DNA of 64,000 nucleotides from Callorhinchus milii (GCF_018977255.1 NW_024704742.1:79734001-79798000), one strand, 5' to 3'. Shown: positions 422 to 63,994, counted from the stretch's first letter. The notes: generated from the letters alone by a model not told the origin. Numbers and translations are program-made.

Positions 422-687
422 CTCAGCTAATAATCTGGGAAGGGTGTCTGTATGTGCTTCAGTTGCCACTTTCAGTAAAGTGGAGGTATTGGCTGCAAAT
501 GTCTTCCAGTAACCTTTAAGTTTATTTGCCTCATTCAGAGATGCCCGGCTTTCAGTTATGATCTCTGTTAACTTTCTGTCTTCAGATTGTAACTGTGTGA
601 GCTGATTAGCTTTCAGGTGTAGAGCCTCCAATTCCTTGAAGTAATTGTGGATCAGATCTATTAAACTCTTTGTGCAAGAGTCACATT
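422..687 (-). CDS. Exon 25, start of coiled coil: (E)CDSCTKSLIDLIHNYFKELEALHLKANQL...LPRLLAE
   Basis: cactcttcag acceptor, GAG|GTAAAT donor, 266 nt, phase 1->0; alpha-chain 'CD.C...L.D.' motif followed by heptad-like helical sequence. Confidence 0.9.
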
Positions 688-825
688 CTGAAGAGTGGAC
701 AGGCAGAGGAGGAAAAGGTGTTAATGAGAACTGTAATACTGTATGTCTACACATGCATGCTAAACTACATTAGAAAGCAAGTATCAGGATCAAAACACAA
801 ACAGGCTTTGGTGATGACACGGTGA

Positions 826-1220
826 TAGCCTAGTTCAGTTGGTAATATTCTCAACTCTGAGGCAGAAGGTTGTAGGTTTAATTCCTACATCAGGACATTG
901 AGCTCACAGTCTAGACTGACACTACAATGCAGTGCCAGAGGTGTGCTGCATTGTCACAGGTGCAGTCCTTCAAATGGGACATTAAGCCAAGGTCCTGTCT
1001 GCTGCTCAGGTGGACGTTAAAGATCCAATGGGGCTACTCAGAAAGAGAAGGAAGTTCTTACTATTGCTCTGGCAACAATCCTCCAGGTAAAATTGGTCAT
1101 TCATGTCACAACTGTTTGTAAGACATTGCTGTGTACAAATTGATCACAACATTTTGAAGTAAATCCTGTGAAGTACTTTCAGACTTCCTCCTGATCTGAA
1201 TGTGCTACATCAGTTGCAAA
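826..1220 (+). mobile_element. Older tRNA-derived Deu-type SINE (SacSINE1-like)
   Basis: Degenerate tRNA head, 'gtcctgtctgc..tcaggtggacgt.aaagatcc' core, L2-like tail; similar to 45224, 36063, 50255. Confidence 0.7.
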
Positions 1221-1389
1221 AATACAACTTTTATAATAATGTACCTAATAATGTAACAATTTTGACAATTATAATAAGAAATTCCCACAAGATGTATATA
1301 TTGTCAAAGCCTAAACCACGGAGCCCAAAACAATAATAATCTGACACTTGGTAGGTATAGTACCTTTACGTCGGCTGACAAATTTTATT

Positions 1390-1655
1390 TGAGTTAATTG
1401 TTGTCCAGAACATTGGGAGAAACTCCCTTCTCTTTTCGAACAGTGCTATGGGATCTTTAACATCCACCTGAATAGGCAGAAAAAACCTCTGTTTAATATT
1501 TTATCTGAAGAATGGCATTTCTAACAATGGAGCACATCCCATCACTGTATTGGAGTGTCATCTAAGACCATGTCAGTTCAAGTCCTGACATGGGGCTTGA
1601 ACTCACTACTTTCCGACTCAGCGGAAAGAGTGCTATCAACTGAGTCAGGCTGACA
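1390..1655 (-). mobile_element. Older Deu-type SINE fragment
   Basis: Reverse copy of the head and core seen at 826. Confidence 0.7.
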
Positions 1656-6034: not shown

Positions 6035-6443
6035 AATACAAAATCCTTGCATTTGATATTGCACTTGATCACAAGTGCTTTATTGTAAAATGTAGTGACT
6101 ATGTATTTGTAGATGAAAGCAGCAACTAATTTGCCTACAGCAATGTTCTACAAACAGCTAGGNAAAAAATACTAATTTTATTTGAGGGATAATTAGGTAT
6201 GGCAATGGGAGAAACTCTCTTCTCTTTTCGAAACGTGTTATGGGATCTTGAGTGCCTGAATAGGCAAACCGGATCTTGATTTGCCTTCTCATCCAAGGAT
6301 GGCATCTGTGACAATTCACGGCTGTTCCAGCACTGTATTGAAGTATCAGTCTAGACTTTGAATCTCAAAGTCCCAATGTGGGAATTTTACCCACAACCTT
6401 CTGACTCATAGGTGAGCGTGCTACCAACTAAGCCAGACTGACA
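6035..6443 (-). mobile_element. Older Deu-type SINE
   Basis: Reverse copy with head, core and tail. Confidence 0.7.
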
Positions 6444-7606: not shown

Positions 7607-8179
7607 GGACTTTACTCATATTAGAATTAGGTTCAGCTTTTCTCTCACTCATTCATCAGGGACCACTCTTTCATCGAGCACTCCAGCTGAAAACTGCACA
7701 CTGTGAGTTATTTGCCTGAGATGAGTAAGTCAAGGACATTTGTGAGATGGGTAAGTGAGACACCTCCTGGATATCAGTAGTAATTCAGGCAGAATGAAAC
7801 ACTGAGCATCTCGGCGAAACTAGATTAAGATTGAAAGCAAATTGAATCCTATTGCCTGAGAACATTAACAGCCTAAAGGCTGTGAATCAGTGATTGTTGC
7901 AAAGGTATGAGGTGCTGATATAACATTTATCAACATTCTAAGTTACCCAGAGTAAAATCTGACAACATTGTTTCCACAGCAGTTTGATATGTTATGCAAT
8001 CAGCATCGGTTTGAACAAGGTTGGTCCTTGCATTCCCTTCAGTCCAGGGATGACTGATTTTATACACTTTCAGCACATGCGTTATAGCATTGAAACAAAT
8101 TAATCTTACAGTTTCAAAGTAAATCAAAGGTCTGAAGCAGCTTTTTACCGTAATAACTCAAAACAACTAAAATAATACT

Positions 8180-8725
8180 AATGACAATTACAATACAAAA
8201 TTACATTTGTATAGCGCTTTTCATGTTGGGTGGACGTCCCAAAGCCCTGGACAGTCAGGGAGGTTGGGGGTTTGGGATCGGGGAGGGTGAAGGGCAGGGA
8301 GGGTGGCCAAAGTTGCGGTCGAAGAGGAGGGTTTTGAGACATACCTTGAAGGAAGCAAGGGAGGCCGCATGGCAAATTATCTGTGGGATGGAGGTCCATA
8401 GGGTGGGGGCAGAAAGGCTTAAGGCCCGACTGCCAATGGTGACGCAGGCCATGGGGGACATGGAACAGGCCATAGCCTGCTGAGTAGAGGGAGCAGACAG
8501 GTTGATATGGGGTCAGCAGGTCGCAGATGTAGGAAGGAGCAAGGCCGTGGAGGGCCTTGAAGGTGAGGACAAGGATTTTCAACTCCATCTTCTGGGGGAT
8601 GGGAAGCCGGACGAGAGTGGGGTTGATGGGTTCACGGAGCCTGGTGCAGGAGAGGACATGAGCTGCAGAGTTCTGGATTATCTGCAGCTTGTGGAGGGAA
8701 GAGTTAACCAGAACTATATGCGGTA
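8180..8725 (-). mobile_element. L2-clade LINE 3' fragment
   Basis: 'LQIIQNSAAHVL...KILVLTFKALHGLAPSY'. Confidence 0.9.
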
Positions 8726-8894
8726 CTCTAGGTTCCAGTCTGACTCGAGCACTATTCGGCCTGATTATGTACATCAGGAATTGATTTTTCAATCAATCTG
8801 AATCCAGAAGAGTTATGATTAACATAGTCACAGGACAGATCATGACTGTCAATTGCAAACACATTTTCACACACTTTATTGAAATTCAACCTAC

Positions 8895-9038
8895 CTTTGC
8901 AGCCTTCATAGCCAAATCCATGACGAAGGGGTAGACATTGGTCACAAGTACGTCCTCCAACTCCTGGCTTACATCTGCATTGCCCACCAACTGCATTGCA
9001 GATCTTGCTGAAAGAGCCCAGTGTATTACACTGACAAC
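8895..9038 (-). CDS. Exon 24, LE: (G)[22 protein letters not shown]...HGFGYEGCK
   Basis: ttctttgcag acceptor, AAG|GTAGGT donor, 144 nt, phase 1->1. Confidence 0.94.
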
Positions 9039-11420
9039 CTGCAAAGAATACACCTTTAAATCCTCATATTTAATCCCTTCCAGAAACTGAAACAGTCTGG
9101 TGCAACTAGAGGCACATTCTTAAATAGATTGGATGAACCATCTTTGCTTATCAAACATATGGCTACAATTTACATTTTCAGCAGAAAAAAACAATAAGAA
9201 GTGTGGATGAACCAGTTCAGCAATCGTATTGTAACATAGTGACAAGAGTCAGTCATTCAGCCCAACAAGTTTGTTCATGGTAATTAGATTATAATGAATC
9301 TTTTAACCCATTTCCCTTAACACCTTCATTCCCCAAGTAAGTACTCATATGTGTTAAGTACAGTATTCAGAAAACTAAAGTGGCAGTCTATTTTTTTTTT
9401 GCTTTTTTTTACTTAATAATATTACATTATTATCATCTTGATACTACTCTTAATATCTTCTACTAATATTCAAAAAACACTGTTCTTGAATATTAGAACA
9501 GTGGGTTTGAACGCTTGATGACATTCTAAGAAAAATACTCTTCATAGAACAGGCCAGGCTGCACAATTTAAGAAAATAATCGCCTTTCATTGCATTTAGC
9601 CACCCACCACCCTCTTTGATTTTTGTTAAGGTATGGTTTAGACACATCAAATCAACACTAATTACTGCCATTAGATTCACTGCTACAGTAACTATACTCC
9701 TAAACGCTGTCTGATACCATACCAGAACCTTATAATCACACCATTTCATCTGCACTAACTGGAAAATGTTCAATGACCTGTGAGCTGCTGTTTTGCAGGA
9801 TACTTTGTATGAGACATCTTAGCTTGAACGGATGTCTTAGATAAGCTTATCTAGGGTAAAATGAATTAGAAATAGTGTTGATTCAATCTAAGCTGTGCAC
9901 CTCAAAAAAGGTATATGTTCTTGATAAAAAAAAACTGGGAAAACACATTTGTCCAGTTTCCCTTATGGAAGATGGAAGATAAATTGCATACTGCTCCCCA
10001 AATAAAGCTTGAAGTGTTCCTCCAATACTGGTGATTTTGCTTTCAGTTCTCATCAGATACAGAACTGTTCTATACAACATATTCATCATCACTGTAGTCC
10101 TTTGAGAACAGAATAGGAAATGATTATGCAGAACAAACTCATGATTATTTTGTTGAATTTGCAAGTTGGCGCAACTCTAATGTTCAGCTAAGTAAGAACT
10201 TCTCTTCGTATACAATGTGGAATATCAATGTTTGTTGGTTCTACCTAAGGGTATCAAAATAGGTGTTGGGAATTTGAAAGGCATTTGTTTTAATCTTCTA
10301 AAGCTCAGTACGTTCAAGATTAAACAAAGAAGATCTAAAGATGAAGAAAATACGTTATTCCAGAAAGAATCCAAGCAAATATATGTTTCTGAATTCTAAT
10401 ATTATTAGAGGTAAAACTACACAAATTCAAGACAAGGCAAGATAACTGAGCACATGCACAACTCTAAGTTAATCAGGGAGATTCAGCAATGTGCTTATGA
10501 CAAATGAGTTATGTAAGTCTTGTCTAAACAAACCACATTCAATGTTAGACAGAGGTATAAGGAGTTGATTTGATTTTGGTCCTTAAAATAATAAAGGAAA
10601 TTGACAAAGAGGATAAGAAATTATTCTTGCCTTTAGTGTGGGAATTTAGAACAATGGTAGAAAATCTTAAAATTGGACCTTAAATCATTTAAATGTGATT
10701 GCAGAATACATTTCTTTGCACAGGGGATACAATGCCCCCAAAAGACCATAGATTCAAAATCAATTAGGTGGTTAAGAAGGCAATAGATAAGTACTTGGAA
10801 ATAAAGGTACAGAGGCATATGGAGAAAAAGCAGGAAAATTAGATTTAAAAAAATAAAAAGCTGCCCTGAACTAATAAAATAATGAGTACAGTGTACTGTT
10901 AATCTTATTGCCCTCAGTATGCGCTTGCATGATGCTATGTAATACAACATATTAAAACAAATGTTGAGAGATGTTCATTACTGTATTCACATAAACCTAT
11001 TTGGAAGAGTTGAATGTATTGAATTGTCAGAATAAACTTGCCATTACTCCTTATAATGTACATTCCGAGTAAGGGCCATTACTAAATGTTTGCCAGTTTT
11101 CCTGAGTTGGAAATAGACTTCTCCCTTTTGAAAACATCATTTTAAAAGTTAACAGCAAATCTTTAAAAATCTGTAAATTGTGAAAACAAGCAATTTCGAA
11201 TCGAGTGGATATTGGTCCTATTTCTGCTATTGCAAATTCCGCACACCGTTTTGAATATTGTATTGTGTATGCAACCATTTCACCCATACTTCAAGGCAAA
11301 TACAGTATTTAACCCTCTGTTTGCAAAACTTTAAAGAAAAAAGTGAAAAACCTTTTACTTTTTAAGGTACAGGTGAAAATGTATCTATCATTAACATTGA
11401 AATTAACTGCCATAACTATA

Positions 11421-11787
11421 TAATAATAATCCTTGTATTTGATATAGTGCCTTATTATGTCTTCAAGATGACTCAAAGCACTTCACAGAATATACCATAG
11501 AGTGAATTCACTGTATATTTTGTGGGCAAAATGCAGTAACCAATTGCGCACAGCAATGTCCCACAAACAGTTACGAACTGAGTGACTATTTTTTTTAAAA
11601 AAAGGAATTATTACCCCCAGAAAAGTGATCCAGCAATCGACTAACTACTGAGTTCCTACTTACTGCTGGGCAAACAAAGGCATGTGGAGTAAGGACTCTT
11701 GCCCAACATTTCGCCCTACTGGGAATCAAATCCAGGTATATCAACTGGCGTAGTGAGTGCTGTAACCATTAAGCTTACAGGACTCCA
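11421..11787 (-). mobile_element. tRNA-Ala-headed SINE, long variant
   Basis: Same head, core and tail as the 2689 and 41800 copies. Confidence 0.85.
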
Positions 11788-12139
11788 AGTCATTGCTGGT
11801 CTATAGACATATAATAGTCCATTACAATTGCACATACAAATAAATGGCTCTTAGAAAATACAATCAATTAATTGGATGGCTTTTTATATTTCACTCTGAA
11901 TATAATTGTACAGTTCTGTCACATTTGAAACTCAAGGCGATAGTACATTTCATCAAATATTAAAGAATTTATTCAGTACCAGAAAGCAACAGCCCAGATC
12001 TAGAGACCTGCAGAGCCATCAATCAGAAAACAACATTAATACAGCATCAAGGGAAACCTCAGCAAGGAAGAAATCAGCAATTCAAATCAATTAAAATCTA
12101 GGTAAATCCAAATTTGAAAAACCTATTGCAAGGTAGAAT

Positions 12140-12410
12140 TACGAAGACAGCTAGGTCCATCAGGAGGTTTGGGACGGCAAATTGTGAAGTATGGTCGAAA
12201 GAGCCCTTTGTTTTCCCCTTTCAACTCCACAACCATGGTTGGGCCAAAGTATTGCAGTCAGAGTATTGCATGGTAGAGGCCAGGGCACTGGGCTCATTTA
12301 AACTGCAGTTGATGCTGCGATGGGAGTGATGGTTGGGTGGGTATCCTAGAGGAATGAGGTCAGGTGAACCCAAGGGCCTTCTTCATTCAAATCAATCTTG
12401 TGATTTTGAT
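12140..12410 (+). mobile_element. CR1-clade LINE 3' remnant
   Basis: Similar to 57500 and 23620 ('cagttgatgctgcgatggg', 3' UTR). Confidence 0.6.
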
Positions 12411-12756
12411 ATTAGAAAATGCTGGATTAATTCTGATCTATTCATGTTCAGTTAAACAGTCACCCGATATGCTGGAACTCCAATTGGAATCGGTGGGGAA
12501 AAATGCAACGAATGTCATGGGCAACTTTATGTCAAAATAAAATTGTGATTAAATCAGGGATAGGGGGTGGGGGGAGGAGAATTCATATCTGCAGTTATCG
12601 ACGGTCTCCATCCCACTTTAATCAGTGTGTTAATAATCGTATTGCAATTTTCATCCCTTGTCTTTTTTATTACCAGGTGTCAAGAGATGGTTTCTCAGCA
12701 GGGACTGGGGGAGGGGGGATGGGAGAAAGCTTCTTCCTTTGAAGACATAGACTAAC

Positions 12757-12937
12757 CTGAGCAGTTCATTCCCAGTGTGAGGCCAAATTGACCGCGGGGA
12801 CAAAGGCTGCACTTCTCTCCGGTGACATCTGGTTGGCAGAAGCACCTGCCCCTTTTATCACATTGCCTGCTTACTGAACCCAGGACATTGCAGTTGCAAG
12901 GCTGACAGCCACTTAAGGAAAACCCGTAATATCCATC
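12757..12937 (-). CDS. Exon 23, LE: DGYYGFSLSGCQPCNCNVLGS...QFGLTLGMNCS
   Basis: tttattcttag acceptor, CAG|GTTAGT donor, 181 nt, phase 0->1. Confidence 0.93.
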
Positions 12938-13970
12938 CTAAGAATAAAGGAAACATACTTGCAAATAAACAATAAATGTTATATTTTTGCACATCACAAT
13001 GCACAGTGAACCAAAACGCCAATGCCTCAATTCACTTTAACGTGACTGAGGGAATGTAATAATGGTATTAATGGCAATTTGTTTCAGATATCTGACCACT
13101 GATCTTCCATCGTTCCTCCCATACAAAGTCATTGAGTATTCCTCACAGAATAATAAAAGCCAGGACCTTCAGACATTTAATCTCTGTCTGTGCACTGACT
13201 GATACTCTTGATTATACTTCTTAAAACCACTCAGCTACAAACAAAACAGTCAGGCTCAGGATCACAATATTTTTGCAAAGTACACAGTCAATTTCAGGTC
13301 AGGTTCACAGTCAACATATAGATACAGATTAGGCAGTCTTTGAATCACTCTTTGGATCAATATTGAGAGCAATGCAATCTCAAATTAAACTGAACGTTCA
13401 CAGGAATAGAATATTAATTTCACTGGTTTTATGGTTAGGAACATTCTTGAAGTGTTGTTGCTGGCAAACACTGCACTGAAGTTTTTTTTCACACATTGCT
13501 TTGTTTCAAGATTTCTAAGTTTGTGGCCTTTAATTCAAGGCACACAATGCATTGTCGGTAGTGCTGTCCTTCGGATGAGATATTAAACTAAGGTCCCATT
13601 TGTCTGTTCAGGCGCATCTTAAACATCTCATGGCACTATTCAAAAAGAGAGATTCTGCCAACAATCTTCCAGGTAAAATTGATCATTCATTTCATGGCTT
13701 TTTGTGGAACCCTGACTTGCATAGCAGTGATTCTCAAACAAGTTTTTTTTCGTGGACTCAGTATAGTTACTTACTATATTACAGTGGATCCCTTTAAAAA
13801 AATGTTTGTAATGTGTGGATCCCCTTATAATATTGACCGATGGATTGTTGGTTTATCAAAGGTGTGAAATATTGCCAGCTTCCAACACCAACTGACCAGC
13901 TTTATAGCATGCAGGTGAACAAGGCCTCCTGACACTTTGTGGTGTTATAACAACTGCTGGAAATACTCGC

Positions 13971-14120
13971 AAGAGCAGTTGTCAGTGTCCTGTGTGCTAA
14001 GTACACCCACAGCAAGCAATATCAGCAACAACCTGAGCATATAGTTCTTCCCATTATAACTTGGAGTTTGATCAGTGCAAATGATAGAGTAATAGGGGAT
14101 AGGGTGTCCTACTATATATA
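13971..14120 (-). promoter_or_regulatory. Candidate intronic TATA promoter plus signal-peptide-like first exon (MLRLLLILLAVGVLSTQDTDNCS)
   Basis: TATATATA at 14113-14120, ATG at 14040, basic then hydrophobic N-terminus; possible donors GTGGGT (after 14011) and GCGAGT (after 13971). Confidence 0.35.
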
Positions 14121-14419
14121 TGCCTGTTGTAAAATAAATCCTGGTTACAGCAGCATTGAAGTGCATAAAGCCAGAAAAGACAATTGTTGTCTCATATCCT
14201 AAGTAAGATCATTTGGACACCACTTCCGTCACTGACCACTCGATTGAGTAGCCAAGATTCATACACCAAGGTCCCATAAATAGCCTTGAAGAGAACGATC
14301 AACCTATCTGGAGGATTGGTGGCTAGAAAACTCAAAGAAATCCCTTTTGCTTTTCACAGGGTGTCATGGAACCTTTAAGGGCTACTTGAACAAACAGATG
14401 AGATTGTGATTAATCCGGA

Positions 14420-15130
14420 ACTTTGGTGTCTTGTTCGACCATCAACGGGGTTCAAAAGACTGCCCGCCTCCACCACTGCCTCTCCACTCAGGCTGCCGAG
14501 ACCCTCATCCATACCTTCATTATGTCCAGGCTTCACTATCTGCTTGTTGGATTTCTCAATTCTTCTCTCCACGAGCTGCAGATTATTCAGAACTGTGCAA
14601 CTCATGTTCTCTCCTGCACTAAGCTCCATGAGCCAATCGCCTCCATCCTCATCCAGTTTCACTGTCTCCCTTTCCCCAGTGGATTGAGTTCAAGATCCTC
14701 TTCCTCACTTGTAAAACCTTCTTGGTCTTGCTCTTCCCTACCTCTGCGACCTACAAATATGTTACCAACCTGTCACTCCCTCTGTTCGGCAGACACTGAC
14801 CTGCTTCATGTCCCTCGTCCTGCCCATTCCACCATCGGCGTTCAGGCCTTCAACCTTTCTGCCTCCAGCTTCTGGAAAACCACATCCTAGAGCTCCTCTG
14901 CCTCGCCACCTCCCTTGCCTCCTTCATGACCTTTCTCAAGATCTTGCTTTTTGACTGCGCCTTCAGTCATCCTCCCACCTCCACCCCCATTGACTTCCAC
15001 CACCCTCCTTGCCTTCCACCCTCTTGACCCCAAACCCCAGCTCAGATGCAAACTCTTTACTATCCAGTACCTCGGGACTTCTTCCTGCTTTAATAGGCAC
15101 CAAATAAACACAATTTGTTTTTGCTGTTGT
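14420..15130 (+). mobile_element. L2-clade LINE 3' fragment
   Basis: Degenerate 'ETLIHTFIMSRLHY...LQIIQN'. Confidence 0.88.
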
Positions 15131-15592
15131 AATATGTCATCCTAAGGATGGGATAAAACAATGCAAAATTCCTCCACCATGGCTCTGGAGCATCAGCCTA
15201 GACTGTGAGCTGAAAAAACAAATACAGGGCTTGAACCCACAACCTTCTGACTGGAGAGGGAGGGCTTCCAATTGAGTCAAGTTATTAGGGCTGTATTCCT
15301 GGATGATTTGCCAAACATTTTATTAATGGCATTAGAAAAGCTATTAGCAAGCCATTATTAGTCACTTGAGAAACAAACATTCATGCCAAGAACATGAGAA
15401 GTGCATTGCAAAAACATACACAAACACTTGGCTCTTCGATGCACTAAATTCCATTGTAAGTTATTTCTTGAGTGGTCTTTTATGATTTTCACTTGTGAAA
15501 GGGTAATATTCTGGAACAGATGGTTTATATTCCATACGCAGAATTATTTTTCACACAGCTCACAGTGTACACTCACGCCTCCCCAACATTAC

Positions 15593-15701
15593 CTCGCATA
15601 AATGACATGTTCTTCCACCAATGCCAGGCTTGCAAGGGCATTTACCAGTTGTGGGCTCACATGTGTGGTTGCTCAGTGTTCCCATTGGTTACAATTGCAT
15701 G
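15593..15701 (-). CDS. Exon 22, LE with 1-nt frameshift: (A)CNCN/x/MGTLSNHTCEPTTGKCPCKPGIGGRTCHLCE
   Basis: ctttgaacag acceptor, GAG|GTAATG donor; 109 nt where 110 is needed for phase 1->0. As given it reads ACNCNQWEH-stop. Confidence 0.88.
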
Positions 15702-16043
15702 CTGTTCAAAGAAAAAGATACGAAAGCTGAGATGGATTCTGACACAGAAGTCACAAAAGATAAGATAAGGCAAATCCTGCATCAGTTTGGTTCAGGGATT
15801 GTAATCTCATCTCTGGGCTAGAAGACTGAGGGTGAGAATTATATATGCAGATCACCAGACTGCACCCACCCATACACAAACATGCGTGCATTTATTGACA
15901 GTGGCAAAGTCAAGTTACATTTAGACAATGAAAATAAGAGTCCACCACCACTTTCTGAAAAAATTTGATCTGTGTCAGACAGCTGTGTGTAAAAAAGTGC
16001 TGTATTGAAAGCCCCACTAAGTGGTCAAATATTAATGACCAAC

Positions 16044-16231
16044 CTTTGCAGTCTCCTTGAAGATTGGCGTTGCCGTACATTCCTGTCACACAGAGCTCGC
16101 AGTGGGACCCCGTGGTATTGAACTCACAGCTCAAGCACTCTCCAGATTTAGAGTCACACTTGTTCGAATTCTCCCAACAGTCACACTCTCTGCACGTGGA
16201 GTTTGTGTCTCGATAAAAGAAGTCTTCACAT
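16044..16231 (-). CDS. Exon 21, LE: (R)CEDFFYRDTNSTCRECDC...GMYGNANLQGDCK
   Basis: ttcccattag acceptor, G|GTTGGT donor, 188 nt, phase 2->1. Confidence 0.93.
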
Positions 16232-17164
16232 CTAATGGGAACAGGAAATGGGGTTTATTTTGATAGTGTTGCCCTGCACAAACTTCCATCTTCACATTGC
16301 AATCCTCAGGCTACTTGCTTTGCGTTTGTGAAATATTAAGTAGTGTTTGCTCTTCAGGGACAAAACTATTTTATTGTGCTACAAAACATAGGGTAAAGTG
16401 TGTGGCATTTCATAAAGTCTTGCACCATTTAATGAGTTGGCTGGATTCAGCAGCGAGGAAGGGNAAAAATTAAAAGAGAGAAATGCAAATGTAACTGGTG
16501 CTCATTCAATCTGTTTGAAAAGAATGAACTTAAGACTCAGCAGCCCAAGAGGAACTTTAAACCTTGCTTAAGGATGGGGTCAATCTGAATACAACTTCCA
16601 AAAATCAATTCCACACAATTATAGTGATGGTTTTCAGCATTATTTGAGAATCTGAGGAGAAGGTAAGTGTGAAGAAGCCAAAGAATATGATCATCAGCAC
16701 ACGTGCTTGATAGGCGATTTCAAGCATTTGTGTTGAGCTCAAACTGCTGAGCTCTCAAAGATCGCTTCCTGGTGGTTCGCTTGATGAACACACATCTACA
16801 ATGACGTGCGTTTATAAAAAAACCTTTTTGTAAGATAATGCCCCTGAAACACACAGCCACTCCAACTTAGAGTATGTCTTGTCAAGTTCTGTGAGGCACA
16901 CTTCTGATGTGAAAGGCACTATACCAAATGTAAGGATTATTATTTATCATCATTATTATAATGTCTCAGAGCACCGGATATCATCTCAGAGGACTGGGTC
17001 AAGTAACGTTTAAGAGAGAATTAGACAATATTTTAAAAAGCAACGCTAACAATGGGTATAAGGAGACAACAGCTAAACACTTAGCTCTTACAGAGAGCCA
17101 AATGGCTTCCCTGAATGCTGAATAGATTCTACAATTTCTATGATTCTAATCCACTAGCATTCAA

Positions 17165-18926: not shown

Positions 18927-19107
18927 CTGTCACACAGTGGGCCAGTGTAACCATCAGAGCAGTTCATGCAAGTCAGCTTCCCTTCCATTACATCGCATTC
19001 AGCTGCTGAAGCCTGGGGTGAGCGACAAGGACAAACCAAGCAAGGCTCCTGGAGGCTGGCAGACGAATACCTGAAGAACCCAGGCATGCAGCAGTCACAT
19101 CTGTCTC
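18927..19107 (-). CDS. Exon 20, LE: (G)DRCDCCMPGFF...CSDGYTGPLCD
   Basis: 181 nt, phase 1->2, AG|GTGATT donor. Confidence 0.94.
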
Positions 19108-19512: not shown

Positions 19513-19654
19513 CCGCAGTGTTATTTGCACAGTCTAAACACCTTCCTGTGTTTGATTCACACATTAATGAGTGACCGTGACACTTGCAAGGGACACAGGA
19601 GTTTCTTGGTTCTCGGTCACCGGGTTCAGCCTTGTAGTATCCTGTTGCACACAT
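19513..19654 (-). CDS. Exon 19, [12 protein letters not shown]...[10 protein letters not shown]...CANNTA
   Basis: tttccgcag acceptor, G|GTAAAA donor, 142 nt, phase 0->1. Confidence 0.94.
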
Positions 19655-21941: not shown

Positions 21942-22056
21942 CTCACAGGATAATCCACCGTAGGAGGGTCCACAGGAACACATTTCAACAGCAAGATCCC
22001 GGTCATTCCCTTTGTCTGATCCAGCAACGGCAACTGTATAGGAGGCTTCATAAAGA
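21942..22056 (-). CDS. Exon 18, L4 end + LE: (I)LYEASYTVAV...AVEMCSCGPSYGGLSCE
   Basis: 115 nt, phase 2->0; 'VE.C.C...Y.GLSCE' motif follows L4. Confidence 0.94.
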
Positions 22057-23890: not shown

Positions 23891-23992
23891 TTCACTTAAC
23901 CTCTGTGTTTATTCAATTCAGAGTACTTATAAATCCTTAGATTTGTGTTTGAAAGAGAATAAGGTGGAAAATGTAATTACACTTAAACTTAC

Positions 23993-24198
23993 ATCGTTTG
24001 TGTCTCTTTCCAAGAAAATAAAGCAGGGATAAAGATATCCGTCACATTGGATAGAACTAAGAGAAAGTCCTGGCGGGTTACAGGCCGATCAGTTATCTGA
24101 TGCATCCAGAACCACTCATACAAAGGGAAAGCAATCACTTCTTTCTGTCCTTTGCACTGAATTGATCCAATGTTATGCTTCAGTTTCTCACCAGATCC
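23993..24198 (-). CDS. Exon 17, L4: GSGEKLKH...WMHQITDRPVTRQDFLLVLSNVTDIFIPALFSWKETQT
   Basis: 206 nt, phase 0->2, GTAAGT donor; L4 motif 'PVTR.DF..VL.N...I.I.A'. Confidence 0.92.
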
Positions 24199-25230: not shown

Positions 25231-25488
25231 CTCTAGCAATGTCACTGCCATTGATGTTGAGTTTTCTCCACTACAGCTCACAGTGCAGCTAACTCTTGTT
25301 CCATAGAGATTCAGGAGATTTCCCACGAGAGCTGATGGTCTCCAGAAGACCTCAGACTGCACACTGTGGGATAACAGCCTCAAAGTGTTCCTGACAGCAG
25401 TCAGTTTGCTGACACTTTGGCACAAGAGGGCTGTAGAGTTCATTTTCTGCCATAGTTGCCAGTTACTCTCCTGTGCAGGAATCGGCAC
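25231..25488 (-). CDS. Exon 16, L4 (laminin IV type A) domain: VPIPAQESNWQL...EVFWRPSALVGNLLNLYGTRVSCTV...VTLLE
   Basis: ggttttgtag acceptor, GAG|GTACCG donor, 258 nt, phase 0->0; resembles the L4 'YW..P..FLG....SYGG.L' motif. Confidence 0.88.
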
Positions 25489-26545: not shown

Positions 26546-26686
26546 CCTTTGCAGACTCCCTTTCAGACTAGTGCAGTTTGATGTTATCCCTGAACAGTAA
26601 CATTTCAAACAACCCGAGGGATAGTCTTCATACAGATGAAATGATCCTTGATGGCACTGATTACATTGAGGTCCAGTGACAAGCTC
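26546..26686 (-). CDS. Exon 15, LE + split LE before L4: ELVTGPQCNQC...SGCLKCYCSGITSNCTSLKGSLQR
   Basis: 141 nt, phase 0->0, GTATGT donor; 'GCL.C.C.G....C.S' precedes L4 domains. Confidence 0.94.
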
Positions 26687-26804
26687 CTTAAAAAACAACA
26701 CACATCTATTCAGTCTCTTAGTCACAAACAGGAGGTTAGATAAATAATGCTAATAAGAAGATAGAAAATGTTATTCTGATATTTAAATATAAGACAAGAA
26801 CCTA

Positions 26805-31635: not shown

Positions 31636-31851
31636 CTTACATGGGCATTGTCCACTGAAAGGATCACAAATATCGCTTTGGCTCCCAGCTGGATCGCAGC
31701 CACAGTCAACACATCCGTCCACAGAGAAGTGCTTGAATCCTGGAGCACAACGGTTGCACATTCTCCCTGCTACGTTAGGCACACACTCACAGGCACCGCT
31801 CACCACATCGCACTGGCTAAACAGGGATCCAGTGGCATTACACAAACATTC
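31636..31851 (-). CDS. Exon 14, LE: ECLCNATGSL...CDPFSGQCPCK
   Basis: cttttgcag acceptor, AAG|GTGAGT donor, 216 nt, phase 0->0. Confidence 0.95.
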
Positions 31852-34065: not shown

Positions 34066-34202
34066 CAGACATCCAGCAGCTGCGTCATATCTCCATGTAT
34101 CCGAAATGCATTGGTCACATTTCTGTCCATTCACATTTGACAGACAGTCACACTGTCCAGACAAGGCATGACACATCTTGTTTACTCCTGTGCAGTTGCA
34201 AA
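34066..34202 (-). CDS. Exon 13, LE: (F)CNCTGVNKMCHALSGQCDC...YDAAAGCL
   Basis: 137 nt, phase 1->0, GTGGGT donor. Confidence 0.93.
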
Positions 34203-34783: not shown

Positions 34784-35001
34784 AAGTGCAGCCGCTGTTG
34801 GAGAAGTTGTAATGCTGTAGGAAACATGTATCACAGTGCTGGCCACCCACACTTGGCTTGCAGTTACATCTCCCACCATATTCCTCACACCTCGAAGAAA
34901 TGCTTCCGACTGGACTACATTCACAAGGGAAAGCCCCGTCCAGGAAAGACAATACCAATGTGAACAGGTACTTTTGACAAATTGGATCCGGGGGCCAGTA
35001 C
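34784..35001 (-). CDS. Exon 12, LF end + LE: (G)YWPPDPICQKYLFTLVLSFLDGAFPCECSPVGS...NFSNSGCT
   Basis: cctttgcag acceptor, GTAAGT donor, 218 nt, phase 2->1. Confidence 0.94.
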
Positions 35002-38638: not shown

Positions 38639-38742
38639 CCCCAGCGTTCAGACGGAAAGCTGCATTTACTCATGTACGTGATAGTGTCTTGTTCTTCAAG
38701 AATTCCAATAGGATAAATAAACTCTGACGGAATGGCAACTAC
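38639..38742 (-). CDS. Exon 11, LF: VVAIPSEFIYPIGILEEQDTITYMSKCSFPSERW
   Basis: aatttttag acceptor, GTATGT donor, 104 nt, phase 0->2; completes the 'LLD.VV.IP' motif across the junction. Confidence 0.88.
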
Positions 38743-43872: not shown

Positions 43873-44034
43873 CTGGTCCAGAAGAACATTAATGTCTTCT
43901 TCAATGTTAAGTTGAACCTCCACTTTCCAGTCCCCAGGCGCCATCTTCCAGTATTCTCCCGCAGGATTGAGAGACACATAGCACCAGGTCTGACAGCCAT
44001 CATACAACGTTACAACTGACGAATAGCCTGCCCT
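43873..44034 (-). CDS. Exon 10, LF: RAGYSSVVTLYDGCQTWC...MAPGDWKVEVQLNIEEDINVLLDQ
   Basis: 162 nt, phase 0->0, CAG|GTAAAC donor; 'PG.W....VLLD' LF motif. Confidence 0.88.
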
Positions 44035-44496: not shown

Positions 44497-45011
44497 CTTT
44501 GTTTGAACGACAGACACTGTTGCTTTTGTATTCTTTGAAGAGATAAATCGGAGAAATATTCTGAACAAACCACTGAACTTTGTGCTACTGGGTACAGTCA
44601 GGACTGCATGAACAGGGTCTCCAAATGCAAATACATAACCAAAGCCACTAAAGTCCTTCCAGACAAAAGACCCTTTTGAAATCTCTGACCTGAATCCTTC
44701 AAATTCTCCAGCTATAAACTGCATGTTGGGATAATAATGGTTTGGAGCAGGTCTATTGCACCGCTGACCAGTCACAGCAGTTTTGCAGGCACACTGTCCT
44801 GTCAACGTGTTGCATATTTTACTTGTGGAGCCCCCGGCATTGCAATTGCAAGGATAGCAGCCTTCAGCGTTACTCTGATTCAGACCATAGTAACCATCCA
44901 GACATTCAAAGCATCGGCGACCAGTGGTATACGTTCTGCATTGACATTGGCCTAAGGTTTTGTCACAGAGGAGCGAGAAGTCTTTGGTCCCTGCAGTCTC
45001 ACAATCACAGG
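44497..45011 (-). CDS. Exon 9, LE4, LE5 and start of LF domain (HYYPNMQFIAGEFE...DFSGFGYV...LFRIFLRF)
   Basis: 515 nt, phase 1->0, GTAAGA donor; resembles alpha5 'HYLPDLHHLRLELE...FSWRGY...LFWLVFRY'. Confidence 0.95.
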
Positions 45012-45739: not shown

Positions 45740-45845
45740 CTGTACATCCCTCAGGCTCTTCGGCACTAAGGTTGAAGAAACCATTCTTACACAGGCTGCA
45801 TTTACTGTCCATCACATTCTTCTTACAAAAGCAATCACCAGGCGA
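45740..45845 (-). CDS. Exon 8, LE3: SPGDCFCKKNVMDSKCSLCKNGFFNLSAEEPEGCT
   Basis: ctattttcag acceptor, G|GTAAGT donor, 106 nt, phase 0->1. Confidence 0.93.
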
Positions 45846-46319: not shown

Positions 46320-46492
46320 TTTATCCTTGACTAGCAGATGGTCTTCTTTCCTAAAACAATCACCAGGCACTTGCCCTGCAATCTGTCTGACGCCAGGTAA
46401 GAAACAAGCACAGGGCTGGCATGCCTCCGTGGAGGAGAGCCCCACCATCTCTGGGTGGAAAAATAACGGCAAACATTTTTCACAGTTCACGC
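46320..46492 (-). CDS. Exon 7, LE2/LE3: (G)VNCEKCLPLFF...ACQPCACFLPGV...DHLLVKDK
   Basis: ctcttccag acceptor, GTAGGT donor, 173 nt, phase 1->0. Confidence 0.93.
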
Positions 46493-49006: not shown

Positions 49007-49138
49007 CGGTGGTGTTGTGCTGGCAATTGAGGCAGACCCCTCCCCCCTCCTGCTGTCCCTGTGTGTTCTTGCTCCAGTTGAGATCTGCTGCTGTTTGATT
49101 ATATACACATTTATCACTGTGTCCCAAACAGTTGCAGG
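49007..49138 (-). CDS. Exon 6, LE2: (A)CNCLGHSDKCVYNQTAADLNWSKNTQGQQEGGGVCLNCQHNTT
   Basis: 132 nt, phase 1->1; carries the alpha-chain LE2 insert 'S.N..G...GGGVC'. Confidence 0.95.
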
Positions 49139-52503: not shown

Positions 52504-52696
52504 CTTCACAAGGAATTCCAGGATGATATGCTCTTTGGTTATAGAAGTCTTTACATTGTTCACAGTATCTTCCTTCAGTGTTCCCTCCACACACACATTC
52601 ATACTGTCCAGTTACATTATTGATCACACAGTCCTCCTCCAGATCATTGCAGGGGCAGTATCCAAACACTTCAATCTCCTTCACTGTAAAATGATG
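52504..52696 (-). CDS. Exon 5, LN end + LE1: HHFTVKEIEVFGYCPCN...YHPGIPCE
   Basis: ttcttcccag acceptor, G|GTACTT donor, 193 nt, phase 0->1; 8-Cys LE pattern. Confidence 0.93.
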
Positions 52697-53741: not shown

Positions 53742-53822
53742 AAACAGGTTATCATAAACAGTTGGCCAAGTTGTATCCATACCAAAGAATCCAAGCCGAA
53801 TATATCGGGTCATTTTCCACTC
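53742..53822 (-). CDS. Exon 4, LN: EWKMTRYIRLGFFGMDTTWPTVYDNLF
   Basis: ttttgtatctttag acceptor, GTAAGT donor, 81 nt, phase 0->0; matches LN 'E(F/W).kat.IRLrF'. Confidence 0.85.
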
Positions 53823-58050: not shown

Positions 58051-59249
58051 GTTAATATAAATTCAGACTATCCAAATGGATTCTGTTTACAAATGGCCTG
58101 GATGTACAGCTGAAGATCTTTCAGTCAACTACTTTTTAATGTTATTATTGAAGCAGATGCATGACCAATTATATGCTCTTTATAGACAAGACAAGCCCCC
58201 ACATCTGGTCCCTCGTTGGGAGGAATGTTGAGTGGTGGTGGAAGAGGGCACACAAATGGGGTTCGATTAAGATCATCTAATCTAAGGGATTCTGAACTCT
58301 CCTCCTCCCTCCCCAAACTCTGAAATACTTAAAGACTTGGGTCTTTGCATTTTTGGGCTCTTAATCAGTTTGTGTTGCATGGGACTGGCAACTTAATAAA
58401 TTGAGCATTCTCTTATCACAAGTAGAAGGTGTTAATTGTTATCCAGGGCTCTCAATCCTGATAAACTCAACTGGATGAGGCTCATCAGTTTCAATCCTTA
58501 ACTCTAGATGGAGTTCTGTAATACAGCATTGCATCGATGATGGTTAAGATGAAATCATTGGGCACAATGCCTTCCCCTCTTTGTCCGTGTTAAATTGAAG
58601 GGATGTAAGGCTCATCCAAGCTTTGATGTCTGACAGGCAGGTGGTCAGAACATCAGTCGACGTGGGTATTGAGTGCAGCTGGGATCATCTGGAGGAGTCA
58701 GTTTAATGGTGGAGGACACTCAAAGCAACAGCAGTGTACAGCGGCTGCATACAAGAAAGTAACTTTGAGGTGTTGCATTATACCAAAGGAAGCAAAGCTT
58801 CACAATTTGCTTCACATATCAAAGCCCACAGGAACCCAGGAGAAAAAGACATGAAACAAGCTAGTCTGAAACATTGCATTCAATAACTTGATTGCCTGTT
58901 TAATCCTCACAGAGGGGAGCAGAGTGAGACAAGAGAGAAAGAAAAACTGTGAAAAAATTAGGCAGAAATGAAGTCATTTATTTGTATGGTTGAATAAACA
59001 TTTGTTCATTCCCCACAATCATTGGCAGCAAAATTTCATGGTAATAGCTCAGGACTGTGTAAATGACTTCCAATAGTGAATGGCTAGGCAATGTGACGGG
59101 TGATTGCAGACTGCAAATCTTGTAGTTATTTTCAGTATCCTATTCTCTGAAAATTGTGGAGCATTTAAGCAGTGAGGGGCTCCCACAAAAGCTTTTAAAT
59201 TAAGTATTATTGGTGCAAATGTAATGACTGAGCACACCACAATGTTAAA

Positions 59250-60072
59250 CACTGCACTGTCCAGTTACCTGGTATTGCGTCAGCACCTCAGGCTCTGGCA
59301 GCATCAACCTCCATGGTTGCACACTACAAGCCAGTCAGGAACCTAGGTGTCTTGTTCGACCCTCAACTGTCTTTTCTCCCCCACATTCAAACCATGACCC
59401 GCTCTGCCTTCCCTCACCTCCGTAACATCACCCGACTCCGCCACTACCTCACCCCTCAGGCCACTGAAACTCTTGTTCATGCCTTCGTCACCTCCAGGCT
59501 CGACTATGCAAATGCCCTGCTTGTCAGCCTTCCCAACTCCTCCCTCCACAGGCTGCAGATAATCCAGAACTCTGCAGCCCGCGTCCTCTCTCGCACCAAA
59601 CTCCATGACCCCATCTCCCACACCCTCGCCCGATCCTGTTGGCTCCCTATCCTTCAGAGGATCCAGTTCAAGATCCTGGTCCTCACATACAAAGCCCTCC
59701 ATGGCCTCGCACCACCCTTCCTCTGTGACCTCCTAACACCCTACAAACCCGCCCGTTCCCTCCGCTCAGCCGGCTCTGGTCTGCTCCACGTCCCCCGACC
59801 CACCCGACCCACCATTGGCGGGAGAGTCTTCAGCCTCTCTGCCCTCAACCTCTGGAATTCCATCCCCCAGTCACTCCGCCTTGCCCCCTCCTTGGCCTTC
59901 GTCAAGTCCTGCCTCAAGACCCTCCTCCTTGACCATGCCATTGAACACCCCACTTACCCTCCCCTCCCTCCCCCCCCGACCCCAGCTCGGGTCTGAAATG
60001 CTGTACTCTGTCCAGGCCTTGGGATGTCCTCCTGACGTGAAAGGCACTATACAAATGTAATCTTGTTGTTGG
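59250..60072 (+). mobile_element. L2-clade LINE 3' fragment with an open 227-codon ORF2 C-terminus
   Basis: 'VRNLGVLFDPQLSF...ETLVHAFVTSRLDYANALL...LWNSIPQSLR'; (TTG)n tail. Confidence 0.95.
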
Positions 60073-60262: not shown

Positions 60263-60389
60263 CGTGATGTTTGATTCCACTGGAGATTCAGTGAAGCGAA
60301 ATGCCCTACAGGAGAAGGTTGTGGTGTTCTGAGCTGTAAGACCATAGGAAACGTTGAAAAGACGCCTGCAGTGACTTCTCTCAGATACT
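60263..60389 (-). CDS. Exon 2, LN: (R)VSERSHCRRLFNVSYGLTAQNTTTFSCRAFRFTESPVESNIT
   Basis: ggtacag acceptor, GTAAGA donor, 127 nt, phase 2->0; carries two LN cysteines at the expected spacing. Confidence 0.85.
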
Positions 60390-61494
60390 CTGTACCAAAT
60401 CAAAAGCAGGAATATTGCAATTAATTGTTTTGTTGCGCATGATGTGCAAGGAGCAATATAAAACAATATTTACAGTGAAAATTGTGGTTCAGTCCCAAAT
60501 TTTGCATTTGTCAACAAAACACAGTCACTTCACATTACAATATATCTTGTGAAGCTTTTTGGGACGTCCTTCTGACATGAAAGGCAGAACTTCTACATCA
60601 AATTCAATTATGATAATTTTTTTTATTGTTTGAAAAGATTAAACTACAAATCTGCAATTTATTGACAATCCAAGCTGTATTTCCAAGAAGCAGAGCGAGT
60701 ATATATGTGTTGGCACATGAATTCACACAGCACAGAATAATTCACTGGACTAAATGTACAACAGTGAATGCTTGGAATTTGTAACCAAAGAAATGTTCAA
60801 ATTTTAAAATAAAGGATAGAACAAAGAGAGAAAGAGATTTATATGTGACAGTTGCAAGTATATAATGCTTACAGAAACATAGCAAAACAGGAAGAGACCA
60901 TTCAGCAGTTTATTAGATATTGGGGAGAGGATATTTTAATTCGAATGTCCTGCCATTTTATCTTACCCCAAGTCTCTGTCTATTTCTACTTTAAACAACC
61001 CTATTGATTCCACTTCTACTGCCTTCTGAGGCAGAGCTTTCTTCAGCCCTCTTATGCCATAAGTGAATTACCACAAAATCACAAGGTTTAATACGCTAAT
61101 GGTTGAAGTTGCGAATGGTTAGGCACAAGAGTGGGGTAATTATTCCACAACTCATCTTCTATTTTTAACCTTATGGTTGGGCTCTGTTACAGTGCTCAAA
61201 CTAATGCACAAATTAATAGGCCAAATGGGCCTGAATCACTTTATGTAGTATAGGTTTCTCCCCATGACCGAATGGTGCATGTTTTCTCACTTCACTACTT
61301 TTTTACAGGGGTCTGGAAGTTCTCAGAGGCTGAAGAGGTGGAAAGTATATGAAACACGAGAGATCTAAACTATCAGAGCTTGGATTGGAATCAATAGGGA
61401 TGTTTACAAGAGAAATAGACAGATACTTGGGGTAAAGTGAAATGGCAGGGCATGTTGGAAACCACCAGTGCATTTGGAATATTCTCCTGATGTG

Positions 61495-62985
61495 AACAAC
61501 AACAACTTGGATTTATATAGCGCCTTCCACGTCGGACGGCATCTCAGAGCTCTTCACAGTAACAGATCCTGGGGCCGAGGCAGGGGGAGGGTGAGGAAGG
61601 TGACCAAAGGTGCGGTCGAAAAGAAAGGTCTTCAGCCGAGACCTGAAAATAGGAAGAGAGGGGGTGAGGCGAAGGGAGTGATGAAGGGAGTTCCAAAGCC
61701 TCGGGGCATAGTGGCTGAAGGCACGGCTGCCGATGGTGGAGCGGAAGACTCGGGGGACACGGAGGAGGCCAGATCCGGTGGAGCGAAGGCAACGGGTACT
61801 GTTGTGAGGAGAAAGAAGGTCAGAGAGGTAGGGGGGTGCAGAGGAGTGGAGGGATTTGAAGACAAGAGTGAGGATCTTGAAGACGATCCTCTCTGGGACA
61901 GGCAGCCAGTGCAGTCTGCCAAGGACTGGGGTGATCGGGGAGCGGAGTTTGGTGCGGGTGAGCATGCGGGCGGCAGAGTTTTGTATGACCTGGATTTTAT
62001 GGATGGTAATGGAGGGGAGACCGGCGAGGAGGACATTTGAATAGTTCAGCCGAGAGTTGACAAAGTGGAGTCCTGTAGCTCAGTGGTTAGAGCACTCGTT
62101 TGCAAGCGAGAGACCTGGGTTCAATTCCAGGCAGAGGGCGAAACCTTGGGCAAGTTTCCTTACTCCACACGCCTGATAATAATCCCTCCAAAACCAAAAA
62201 CAATAATAAATTGGTCATCTTCAATCTACGACTGTTTGTGGGACATTGCTGTGCGCAATTGGCTGCTGCATTCGCCCACAAATATACAGTCAATTCACTT
62301 TACAGTGTGTTCTGTGAAGCACTTTGGGACATCCTCCCGACATGAAAAGCGCTATATCAAAATGCAAGGATTATCAAAAAAAAATGCAAGGATTAAAGGC
62401 ATGGACTAGGGTTTCAGTGGCGTAGATGGGCGATGCGTTGGAGGTGGAAGAAAATGGTGCTGGTGAGGGACCGGATGTGGAGGAGGAAGGATAATTGGGA
62501 GTCGAACCTGACACCTAGGTTGCGTACGGGTTCAGAGAGTTTTAGGGGGAGGTCGGCTCGGTGGAGGAGGTGAGAACCATGTGATTTTAGACGTTGATGA
62601 GAGCCAAAGAGTATGGCGTCCGTCTTGTCAATGTTCAGCTGAAGGAAATCCACGCTCATCCAGCTCCTGAGGTCTGACAGGCAGGCTGACAGAACATCAG
62701 GGGACTGGGGGTCACAAAGTGAGGTGAAAAAATAGAGTTGGGTGTCATCCGCATACATGTGGAAGTGTACCCCATATCTGCGGATGACATCTCCAAGAGG
62801 GAGCATGTAGATCAGAAAGAGTAGAGAGCCAAGGATGGATCCTTGGGGTACTCCGCAGGTAACCGGATGAGAGTGGGAGGAGAAGCCGTTTGTGCAGATG
62901 TACTGCTGGCGGTTCGTGAGATAGGACTTGAACCAGGCGAGTGCAGTCCCACTGATGGAGGAAAGGCAGTGGAGGAGGATGACGT
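61495..62985 (-). mobile_element. L2-clade LINE fragment including the RT catalytic motif, SINE-interrupted
   Basis: 'GVPQGSILG', 'FHMYADDTQLY', then ORF2 C-terminus and (TTG)n tail. Confidence 0.95.
62065..62394 (+). mobile_element. tRNA-Ala-headed SINE inserted into L2 ORF2
   Basis: Full-length; interrupts the L2 'HAFVNSRL' codons; AAA on both flanks; duplicated tail. Confidence 0.93.
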
Positions 62986-63884
62986 GATCAACTGAAAGGC
63001 GCTATACAAATGTAATTTGTTGTTGTTGTATTTTAGGTCCCTTTCTCAGTTGTAACATTCATGAAGTAGGAAGTGGCCTCATTGCTTGTGGATTATAGCT
63101 ATAGTAGATAGCCTTAGTTAGTAGGATTTTAGATACTCTGAGATATTCTCGCTAAGTGTGGGGAGAGAATATGCCTCCAGCACATTTGATCCGCTCAGTA
63201 CTAATTAACTGCATGAAAATTAATAACTGCATTTCCAACATGAACCAGGGGTGTTACAATGTAAATTACATAAGTGTATACCTCATAGATAAGATCAGTT
63301 TTAAGATCAGTTTTTAAGGTTTCCCCAATAAATATCTTTATTTGGTGAAAACCGATTGGTAAAAGCAGAATATAGAGAATATTCTTGGGGCCTTAAGTGC
63401 ATAACATGGCCCCAAAATATTTGCTTTTATTACTAGTGATCAAAAAGTGAAGGACTCTGTTTGGCATTGTGTGGTGGTATTCTCTGACAATCTTTAGCAT
63501 GAACAGAATATGTCAATTTTTATTTTTGGTCAGCTGGATGTCTGACACATGCGGAAATCTATCACCATGCTTAAGAGTATCAAACCAAACCAAACCCTGC
63601 ACTCCATCCAGAAAATATCATTCAGTGGCAGAATTTTGTTTTACAATTTTTCACCAAACCATTTTTCCCTCTATTTTTTGCCAATTTTGGCACGAAAAAT
63701 AATGTTTCACTCCACCAAACCTCCCTCCCCAAAAACAAATTATATACCCAGGATTTTATTTTATGGATAAAATAACATTATTACAGTAATCCTTAAATAT
63801 AGATCAGATTTACTGCTGGGTTATTTTTATTGTCATGGTTAGTATTTGGTTGAATACAACTTTTAGAATATTCTTTAAACTTAC

Positions 63885-63994
63885 CTATAAATCCGATTAT
63901 GGTATCTTTTCCCATCCAATGACATTTCTACAGAAAGGCTTCCTGATCTCCTGGAATCTCCAATCCCAACTATGATGGCATCGATGAAATGTTC
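63885..63994 (-). CDS. Laminin alpha-like exon 1 (numbered within window), LN domain: EHFIDAIIVGIGDSRRSGSLSVEMSLDGKRYHNRIY
   Basis: taatag acceptor (at window edge), AG|GTAAGT donor, 110 nt, phase 0->2; resembles the LN 'SPRP..vlErS.DG..y' segment. Confidence 0.8.

Follow-up and report, generated by a model that had tools for sequence, protein, structure and literature searches.

The stretch analysed here, 64,000 nucleotides of the Callorhinchus milii genome (C1:79734001-79798000 in an assembly of 991.5 Mb and 1762 contigs; hereafter the window), contains the first half of a genuine and mostly intact gene for a laminin alpha chain. Alpha chains determine what kind of basement membrane forms and the receptors that it engages, and vertebrates are taught as having five of them, derived from two invertebrate types. 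This gene, whose exons 3-26 lie in the window, probably represents a third, compact type of alpha chain, separate from the two lineages (alpha1/2 and alpha3/5) that produced vertebrate LAMA1-5. What seems new here is a vertebrate member of an ancient alpha family that, in the databases searched, is otherwise seen only in invertebrates.

Exons and domains of the gene

All laminin-like reading frames of the window lie on its minus strand. Among 19 minus-strand open reading frames (ORFs), Pfam recognises laminin-type EGF modules (LE) in 14 and Laminin_B (L4) in one (window 23992-24198, E 5e-7), while four have no match. A profile hidden Markov model (HMM) built from nine invertebrate relatives matches the ORFs of the window in strict colinear order, and this family HMM guided the exon model, in which junctions were set by splice-site score, phase and homology. 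The model comprises 26 exons with AG at 25 of 25 internal acceptors, GT at 26 of 26 donors and consistent phases. When spliced, it encodes 1520 amino acids (aa) and is stop-free once a 1-nucleotide (1-nt) frame break is repaired. The window contains 24 of the 26 exons (3-26), which run from 63994 down to 422. The first two lie upstream, 1.4-3.2 kb past base 64000, and contribute residues 1-118, with the ATG and a hydrophobic signal sequence.

An earlier, sequence-only reading of the window had set the limits 63994 and 422, which the first and last in-window exons reproduce exactly; it had counted 25 exons without an exon list, where 24 are counted now. Its domain order of LN, five LE, LF, four LE plus a split LE, L4, six LE and CDSC is the same as that of the spliced model, which reads signal peptide, divergent LN, five LE, LF-like insert, four LE, a split LE around L4, six LE, CDSC and coiled coil. 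The LN domain lies partly outside the window, its start being encoded beyond base 64000, and is detected by family HMM positions 16-302 across six exons. The LF-like insert comprises 195 aa (model residues 512-706) directly after LE5, and exon 26 carries the CDSC junction together with 85 aa of heptad-rich coil. Beta and gamma references used in tblastn find LE exons only, and an LN profile built from them gives almost no matches. The window has three N bases, all intronic, which give an X in the translated frames near 6160-6350, 16470 and 57500.

Contigs from four sequencing runs of the same organism (X1, X2, X3 and X6) were compared over window 8001-27000. Runs X1-X3 are whole-genome-sized, and X6 is RNA by guess only. 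Among the runs that carry exon 10 sequence, none is listed as RNA and all are of one species. The exons are as follows, with residues of the spliced model in brackets; HMM positions refer to the family HMM, and AG/GT denotes acceptor and donor.

67195-66987 (window-equivalent), minus: exon 1, outside the window; ATG and signal peptide
65553-65409 (window-equivalent), minus: exon 2, outside the window
63885..63994, minus: exon 3 (aa 119-155), LN; first in-window exon; HMM 124-158; AG/GT; best-scoring upstream junction
60263..60389, minus: exon 4 (aa 155-197), LN; HMM 158-202, E 0.012; AG/GT
53742..53822, minus: exon 5 (aa 198-224), LN; HMM 213-235, E 0.097; AG/GT
52504..52696, minus: exon 6 (aa 225-288), LN end and LE1; Pfam EGF_laminin; HMM 236-302, E 9e-24
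49007..49138, minus: exon 7 (aa 289-332), LE2 with GGGVC; HMM 303-348; motif test
46320..46492, minus: exon 8 (aa 333-390), LE2 end and LE3 start; HMM 347-405; acceptor picked by LE pattern
45740..45845, minus: exon 9 (aa 391-425), LE3 end; Pfam EGF_laminin 7e-7; HMM 406-440
44497..45011, minus: exon 10 (aa 426-597), LE4, LE5 and first half of LF-like insert; Pfam EGF_laminin 2e-19; HMM 441-614, E 1e-53; in runs X1-X4
43873..44034, minus: exon 11 (aa 598-651), LF-like insert; HMM 620-672, E 0.01; phmmer of insert
38639..38742, minus: exon 12 (aa 652-686), LF-like insert; weak HMM match 672-702 (E 2.4); retained on colinearity, phase and AG/GT
34784..35001, minus: exon 13 (aa 686-758), insert end and LE6; Pfam EGF_laminin 2e-9; HMM 713-783
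34066..34202, minus: exon 14 (aa 759-804), LE7; Pfam 1.6e-7; HMM 777-823
31636..31851, minus: exon 15 (aa 805-876), LE8 and LE9 start; Pfam 5e-16; HMM 824-897
26546..26686, minus: exon 16 (aa 877-923), LE9 end and first part of split LE10; HMM 896-944
25231..25488, minus: exon 17 (aa 924-1009), L4; HMM 975-1033; weak donor, chosen by homology; an X6 contig stops at 25230
23993..24198, minus: exon 18 (aa 1010-1078), L4; Pfam Laminin_B 5e-7; HMM 1043-1107
21942..22056, minus: exon 19 (aa 1078-1116), L4 end and second part of split LE10; HMM 1095-1144
19513..19654, minus: exon 20 (aa 1117-1163), LE10 end and LE11; HMM 1143-1192
18927..19107, minus: exon 21 (aa 1164-1224), LE11-LE12; HMM 1191-1252
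16044..16231, minus: exon 22 (aa 1224-1286), LE12-LE13; Pfam; HMM 1252-1314; donor 16044 used in a spliced X6 contig
15593..15701, minus: exon 23 (aa 1287-1323), LE14, frame break after 15688; sequence inspection; X1, X3 and X6 contigs
12757..12937, minus: exon 24 (aa 1324-1383), LE14 end and LE15; Pfam 1.2e-9; HMM 1354-1407
8895..9038, minus: exon 25 (aa 1384-1431), LE16; Pfam 1.5e-11; HMM match
422..687, minus: exon 26 (aa 1432-1520), CDSC junction and coiled-coil start; HMM 1462-1518; donor GTAAAT after base 422, read directly

The alpha identity proposed earlier from the GGGVC insert of LE2 holds. In a sample of 47 alpha, 8 beta and 2 gamma sequences, GGG[VIL]C occurs in the LE2 of 45 alphas, one beta and neither gamma, and the closest full-length relatives of the gene carry five LG domains.

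A compact family of laminin alpha chains

Searched against 1.84 billion representatives, exon 10 gave 2377 matches, and the best 150 listed are all at most 47% identical to it. Several proteins of about 3000 aa match exon 10, including the start of the insert, at residues 450-630, which is its place in the model. In tblastn on the locus, relatives of this size find 16-17 exons in colinear order. Pfam recognises LG in five of six relatives and Laminin_B in five of six, the one without LG being a 1278-aa fragment; the full-length relatives have LE, one L4 and five LG, and their LN is mostly unrecognised. The relatives in this first search came from Ptychodera, Saccoglossus, Anneissia, Owenia, Haliotis, Elysia, Helobdella and Sycon, under automatic names such as ‘laminin subunit alpha-like’, ‘alpha-1-like’, ‘epi-1-like’ and even ‘beta-1-like’.

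A search with the Ptychodera flava member (P0017, XP_070542660) among proteins of 1701-5415 aa added Glandiceps, five more echinoderms, Biomphalaria, Lottia, Lineus, Actinostola and Rhopilema. Of the 120 matches listed, 16 extend over 87% or more of the short arm, all of them from outside the chordates; vertebrate LAMA1, 2, 3 and 5 in the same listing cover 38-65%. Residues 26-1519 of the model align with residues 41-1569 of the P. flava protein in one BLASTP high-scoring segment pair (37.8% over 1545 columns, 1012 bits), and the next-best matches are echinoderm and hemichordate members at 877-987 bits. With LN and LE1-2 alone, compact members with a whole N-terminus score 117-263 bits and mostly 216-263, the lower scores being those of Helobdella (179), Actinostola (154) and Sycon (117). 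The corresponding scores are 104-144 bits for other alphas and 66-86 for beta and gamma chains.

Two trees, both quick searches, place the gene within the compact clade. Support by the Shimodaira-Hasegawa-like approximate likelihood-ratio test (SH-aLRT) is 100 for LN plus LE1-2 (55 rows) and 99 for LE9-L4-LE12 (64 rows), and the clade joins alpha1/2 weakly in both (84 and 82).

Compact invertebrate alphas, of about 2900-3200 aa, have the same short-arm domain order and numbers as the gene and align with it end to end. They also share its CxxC coil start, its divergent LN mostly missed by Pfam, and LG exons of the same type as those found downstream of it. Named members are those of Ptychodera flava, Acanthaster planci, Patiria miniata, Lytechinus variegatus, Anneissia japonica, Biomphalaria glabrata, Haliotis, Helobdella, Rhopilema and Sycon ciliatum, and the family ranges over hemichordates, echinoderms, molluscs, annelids, cnidarians and a sponge. 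The gene shows the colinear architecture and domain counts of the family, its clade placement and its invariant residues. However, identity to the family is only 34-39% (25% for the sponge member), and the gene differs in its much longer branch, its vertebrate host and, if it is one unit, its spread over about 1 Mb. Since the family spans a sponge, cnidarians, spiralians and ambulacrarians, the gene would be ancient and retained rather than new, and the earlier idea of a possibly lineage-restricted paralog is not supported.

The insert is called LF-like by position because PF21199 (LF, laminin IV type B) gives no match, either on the ORF with the first half of the insert or on five full-length relatives and one fragment. 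A phmmer search of a local set with the insert alone finds 18 of 22 compact members (E down to 2e-22), two of four LAMA3 chains (E 7e-8 and 3e-7, at the start of domain IVb) and none of nine beta chains. The similarity to the beginning of LAMA3 domain IVb extends over the first 160 residues of the insert. The LF proposed by the sequence-only reading can thus be kept by position and by kinship with alpha3 domain IVb, but not by kinship with the LF of beta chains.

As a third, compact alpha type, the complete chain would comprise a signal peptide, a short divergent LN, 5 LE, the LF-like insert, 4.5 LE, L4, 6.5 LE, the coil and LG1-5. Judged by the domains of the family, the product would be secreted and would form a heterotrimer with beta and gamma chains via its coiled coil. 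Its LN may take part in the nodes of the polymerising laminin network, and its LG domains may bind cell-surface receptors.

Frame break, gene extent and alternative readings

Several observations weigh against an intact gene of the compact family. Neither the LN nor the LF insert is recognised by Pfam, and none of the 48 genome-wide PF00055 (LN) matches falls inside the window. The branch of the gene is long, with 1.42 and 1.54 changes per column in the two trees against medians of 0.19 and 0.27, which could reflect relaxed constraint and mislead quick trees. The assembly has a 1-nt frameshift in exon 23, reading AACCAATGG, after base 15688, and there is no row at 15688 among the indel rows listed for the contigs. 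The one run that suggests splicing, X6, has an RNA status that is guessed, and it also has intronic contigs. No ortholog in other vertebrates was found in the protein databases searched, which is odd for a conserved functional gene. Downstream, no coil or LG1 exons were found at 70-870 kb, a stretch of which about 700 kb (C1:78.874-79.574 Mb) lies outside the searched sequence. Finally, the LG2 exon is duplicated 36 kb apart (C1:78825096-78825428 and 78861351-78861683; L030, L031), with about 2.86 kb around it 99.6% identical. The second copy comes either from a segmental duplication of recent date or from a stretch doubled in the assembly, and it is a sign of a difficult region.

Such observations could mean that the locus is a unitary pseudogene or a decaying gene, that is, a frameshifted relic perhaps separated from its LG part by rearrangement. 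The frameshift at 15688, the very long branch in both trees, the lack of any protein from the locus in the databases searched and an interval of approximately 0.8 Mb, from the coil exons to those of the LG part, in which no exon was detected would all fit. Yet all 26 short-arm exons have an open frame and consensus splice sites, and the LG exons are likewise open and still family-like. Across short-arm columns aligned among 12 compact-family members, the model keeps 136 of 143 invariant columns, including 94 of 94 cysteines and 42 of 49 other residues. It also keeps 98 of 121 nearly invariant columns, and agrees with the majority residue in 594 of 1360 aligned columns overall. Three exonic differences are seen in other individuals, of which two are synonymous and one is Val to Leu. 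Kept invariant residues together with such mild variants are unlike a decayed pseudogene, and this explanation is unlikely.

The frame break, which had earlier been put near 15686, is real in the assembly and is now placed after base 15688, where one added base restores an in-frame eight-cysteine LE14. The reading expected under an assembly error is AACCCAATGG, or any extra base, at window 15680-15700. The contigs from X1 (15224-16564) and X3 (15223-16930) that cross the site both exceed their reference span by one letter. An X6 contig covers 16298-16044, continues with 14 letters and resumes at 15688-15557, skipping 16043-15702, in agreement with the predicted donor and acceptor; its 14 letters compare with 13 in the assembly for 15701-15689. 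An X2 contig starting at 15708 is without the extra letter. As the indel rows listed are silent at this position, the repair has been worked out from the lengths of the contigs. That three other data sets point to an additional base at 15688 or close to it argues against a relic, and the likeliest cause of the break is an assembly error or a private variant. The spliced X6 joint (16044 to 15701) is the sole direct sign of expression, but since the same run holds intronic contigs it is not clean evidence of mature messenger RNA.

Short X6 contigs lie inside introns at 15755-15909, 16347-16497 and 21393-21547; X6 contains pre-messenger RNA or genomic DNA.

Beyond the window, two coil exons lie 69-70.5 kb downstream (C1:79663495-79665173; HMM 1767-1891, best E 5e-8), and no LG match occurs in the window or within 160 kb downstream. 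Family proteins searched against the genome led to a region of the same strand at C1:78.80 Mb, where 59 kb were read. Exons for LG2, LG3, the LG3-LG4 linker, LG4 and LG5 are found there, on C1 minus from 78861683 to 78791501, 0.87-0.94 Mb downstream. They are open and colinear (family HMM 2248-2990, best independent E-value 3e-17). Their best partners in BLASTP are compact members. Summed over seven LG exons, the best scores of 20 out of 21 such members lie at 94-280 bits (21 bits for the other one), and no other alpha exceeds 167. A search with the 1017-aa LG tail of P0017 finds one C1 exon only, and whole-genome Pfam LG scans give three weak LG matches, all far downstream. The sequence-only reading had left LG domains to be sought beyond the window; family-type LG2-LG5 exons are present on the same strand, and no LG1 was found.

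A gap of this size also suits a stand-alone short-arm protein without LG, with the distant LG exons in a separate transcription unit. Short LN-bearing products of laminin genes are known, for example the LaNt proteins from LAMA3, and the large distance, the lack of bridging evidence and the lack of an LG match within 160 kb would be expected of such an arrangement. However, both halves lie on the same strand, are colinear and belong to the same family, and the coil continues at 69-70.5 kb. All whole full-length relatives carry LG. Moreover, a whole-genome search with the family protein P0041 finds family-type short-arm exons in the window only, which leaves no other compact short arm in the genome to own the LG exons. 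A separate short-arm gene is about as improbable as a pseudogene. Given same-strand, colinear LG exons and no second compact short arm, one gene is the simplest reading; it would extend from C1:79,801,195 to about 78,791,500, or roughly 1 Mb.

Vertebrate alpha3B and alpha5 (LAMA3, LAMA5) and invertebrate LanA and EPI-1 resemble the gene in being LN-bearing alphas with a globular insert, then one L4, 6-7 LE before the coil and five LG. In alpha3/5 chains, however, which are proteins of 3400-3800 aa, the insert starts near residue 740-800 after about twice as many LE, and the stretch matching exon 10 begins at residue 724-808; the gene has 5 LE and a 195-aa insert where these chains have about 11 LE and a long domain IVb. 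Fish LAMA5 (P0245) has its best laminin-gene matches at C18:14.96-15.04 Mb (52-79% identity, a level that marks the host as a vertebrate), its top two rows being single-exon LN loci on C20 and C16 (38-39%) that are not laminin alpha genes. Fish LAMA3 (P0014) has its best match at C2:117.84-117.94 Mb (47-76%). Separate LAMA3-like and LAMA5-like loci, whose existence the sequence-only reading had left to be checked, are present on C2 and C18, and the window, at 32-34% identity to the same queries, is none of LAMA1-5, as that reading held. Its assignment to the alpha3/5 subfamily has to be given up in favour of the separate compact clade: forcing the gene together with alpha3/5, a grouping selected after the tree had been inspected, is 94 log-likelihood units worse (approximately unbiased (AU) test, p 7e-6). 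The order of LF-like insert then L4 and the match of the insert to LAMA3 domain IVb (two of four, E 7e-8) might suggest an ortholog of LAMA3 or LAMA5, or a young duplicate from alpha3/5, some of whose exons were overlooked. This can be dismissed as extremely improbable, being excluded by the two trees and the AU test, by the far better matches on C18 and C2 (exons 47-81% identical), and by a gapless colinearity with 3000-aa relatives that leaves no room for missed LE exons.

Other LN-plus-LG loci in the genome lie at C2:115.8 Mb and C3:30.5 Mb. A further locus on the plus strand, C3:88353545-88445382 (L002-L004), has LN, LE and LG matches and is not a laminin alpha. It matches a 5221-aa protein (P0052), which from its length we take to be usherin, with identities of 100% in one exon of 66 aa and 66% in a frame of 218 aa.

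Beta chains (LAMB1, LAMB2 and LAMB4) have an N-terminal half like that of the gene, with LN, LE1-5 and a globular insert after LE5, and they are the top matches among proteins of 302-2000 aa. PMC5338690 places the LF of beta1 and beta2 between LE5 and LE6. Unlike the gene, beta chains, with the plan LN-LE5-LF-LE8-coil, are without L4 and LG; the insert matched none of nine, and one of eight has GGG[VIL]C. In the LN tree, beta and gamma chains fall outside all alphas, and the LN region of the gene falls with the alphas. A beta chain is ruled out by this grouping and by the L4 (Pfam Laminin_B).

Two loci, C12:16.19-16.27 Mb and C5:55.12-55.27 Mb, each hold two LN+LE sets on one strand, as expected of tandem beta-chain pairs.

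Distribution, meaning and genomic setting

Word searches gave nothing at E 1e-10 among proteins of 94-301 aa and no close match among proteins of 302-2000 aa. Very large introns and an LN missed by Pfam make this a type of locus that automatic annotation drops. Fahey and Degnan are said to have described, in 2012, an extra laminin chain type in Amphimedon, Nematostella and a sea urchin that was lost from many bilaterians. The literature searched holds no vertebrate report of a sixth, novel or atypical laminin alpha chain, and searches on laminin evolution found no paper describing the compact family. The standard view is of typically two alpha subunits in bilaterians (Hynes 2012, PMC3308698), 5-8 laminin genes are given per echinoderm class, untyped (echinoderm extracellular matrix review), and alpha-like and chimeric chains in sponges are attributed to Fahey and Degnan (sponge genome paper).

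The chances are about even that a vertebrate here retains a sixth laminin alpha gene in working order, descended from a third lineage of alpha chains in the bilaterian, and probably metazoan, ancestor. The searches gave no member from tunicates, cephalochordates or other vertebrates, and such a third lineage would thus have been lost several times independently. If the animal does retain a gene of this kind, the two ancestral alphas of the textbooks are an incomplete set for chordates, and it could build laminin trimers of a kind absent from mammals. Reconstructions of the ancestral basement-membrane toolkit would change, and there would be a vertebrate model for the role of this chain. The earlier interpretation is partly supported: an extra alpha chain outside LAMA1-5 stands, and a young alpha3/5 offshoot does not.

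Contamination was rejected as a source of the locus, which lies in a 139-Mb contig; its intron repeats are very deep in the same runs, and its unique parts have a depth of about 6-20x in three whole-genome-sized runs. The introns hold long ORFs of non-LTR (long terminal repeat) retrotransposon type, with reverse transcriptase and a C-terminal part, at 62414-63001 (minus), 59232-59996 (plus), 17202-17925 (minus) and 8178-8792 (minus), and related fragments recur many times across the window. Very abundant short repeats, with a word depth of 50,000-180,000 in X1-X3, occupy intronic 11171-11804, 16877-18144 and 20681-21314, and within these high-depth repeats transfer-RNA-like frames (...SALTTELQ...) are recurrent.

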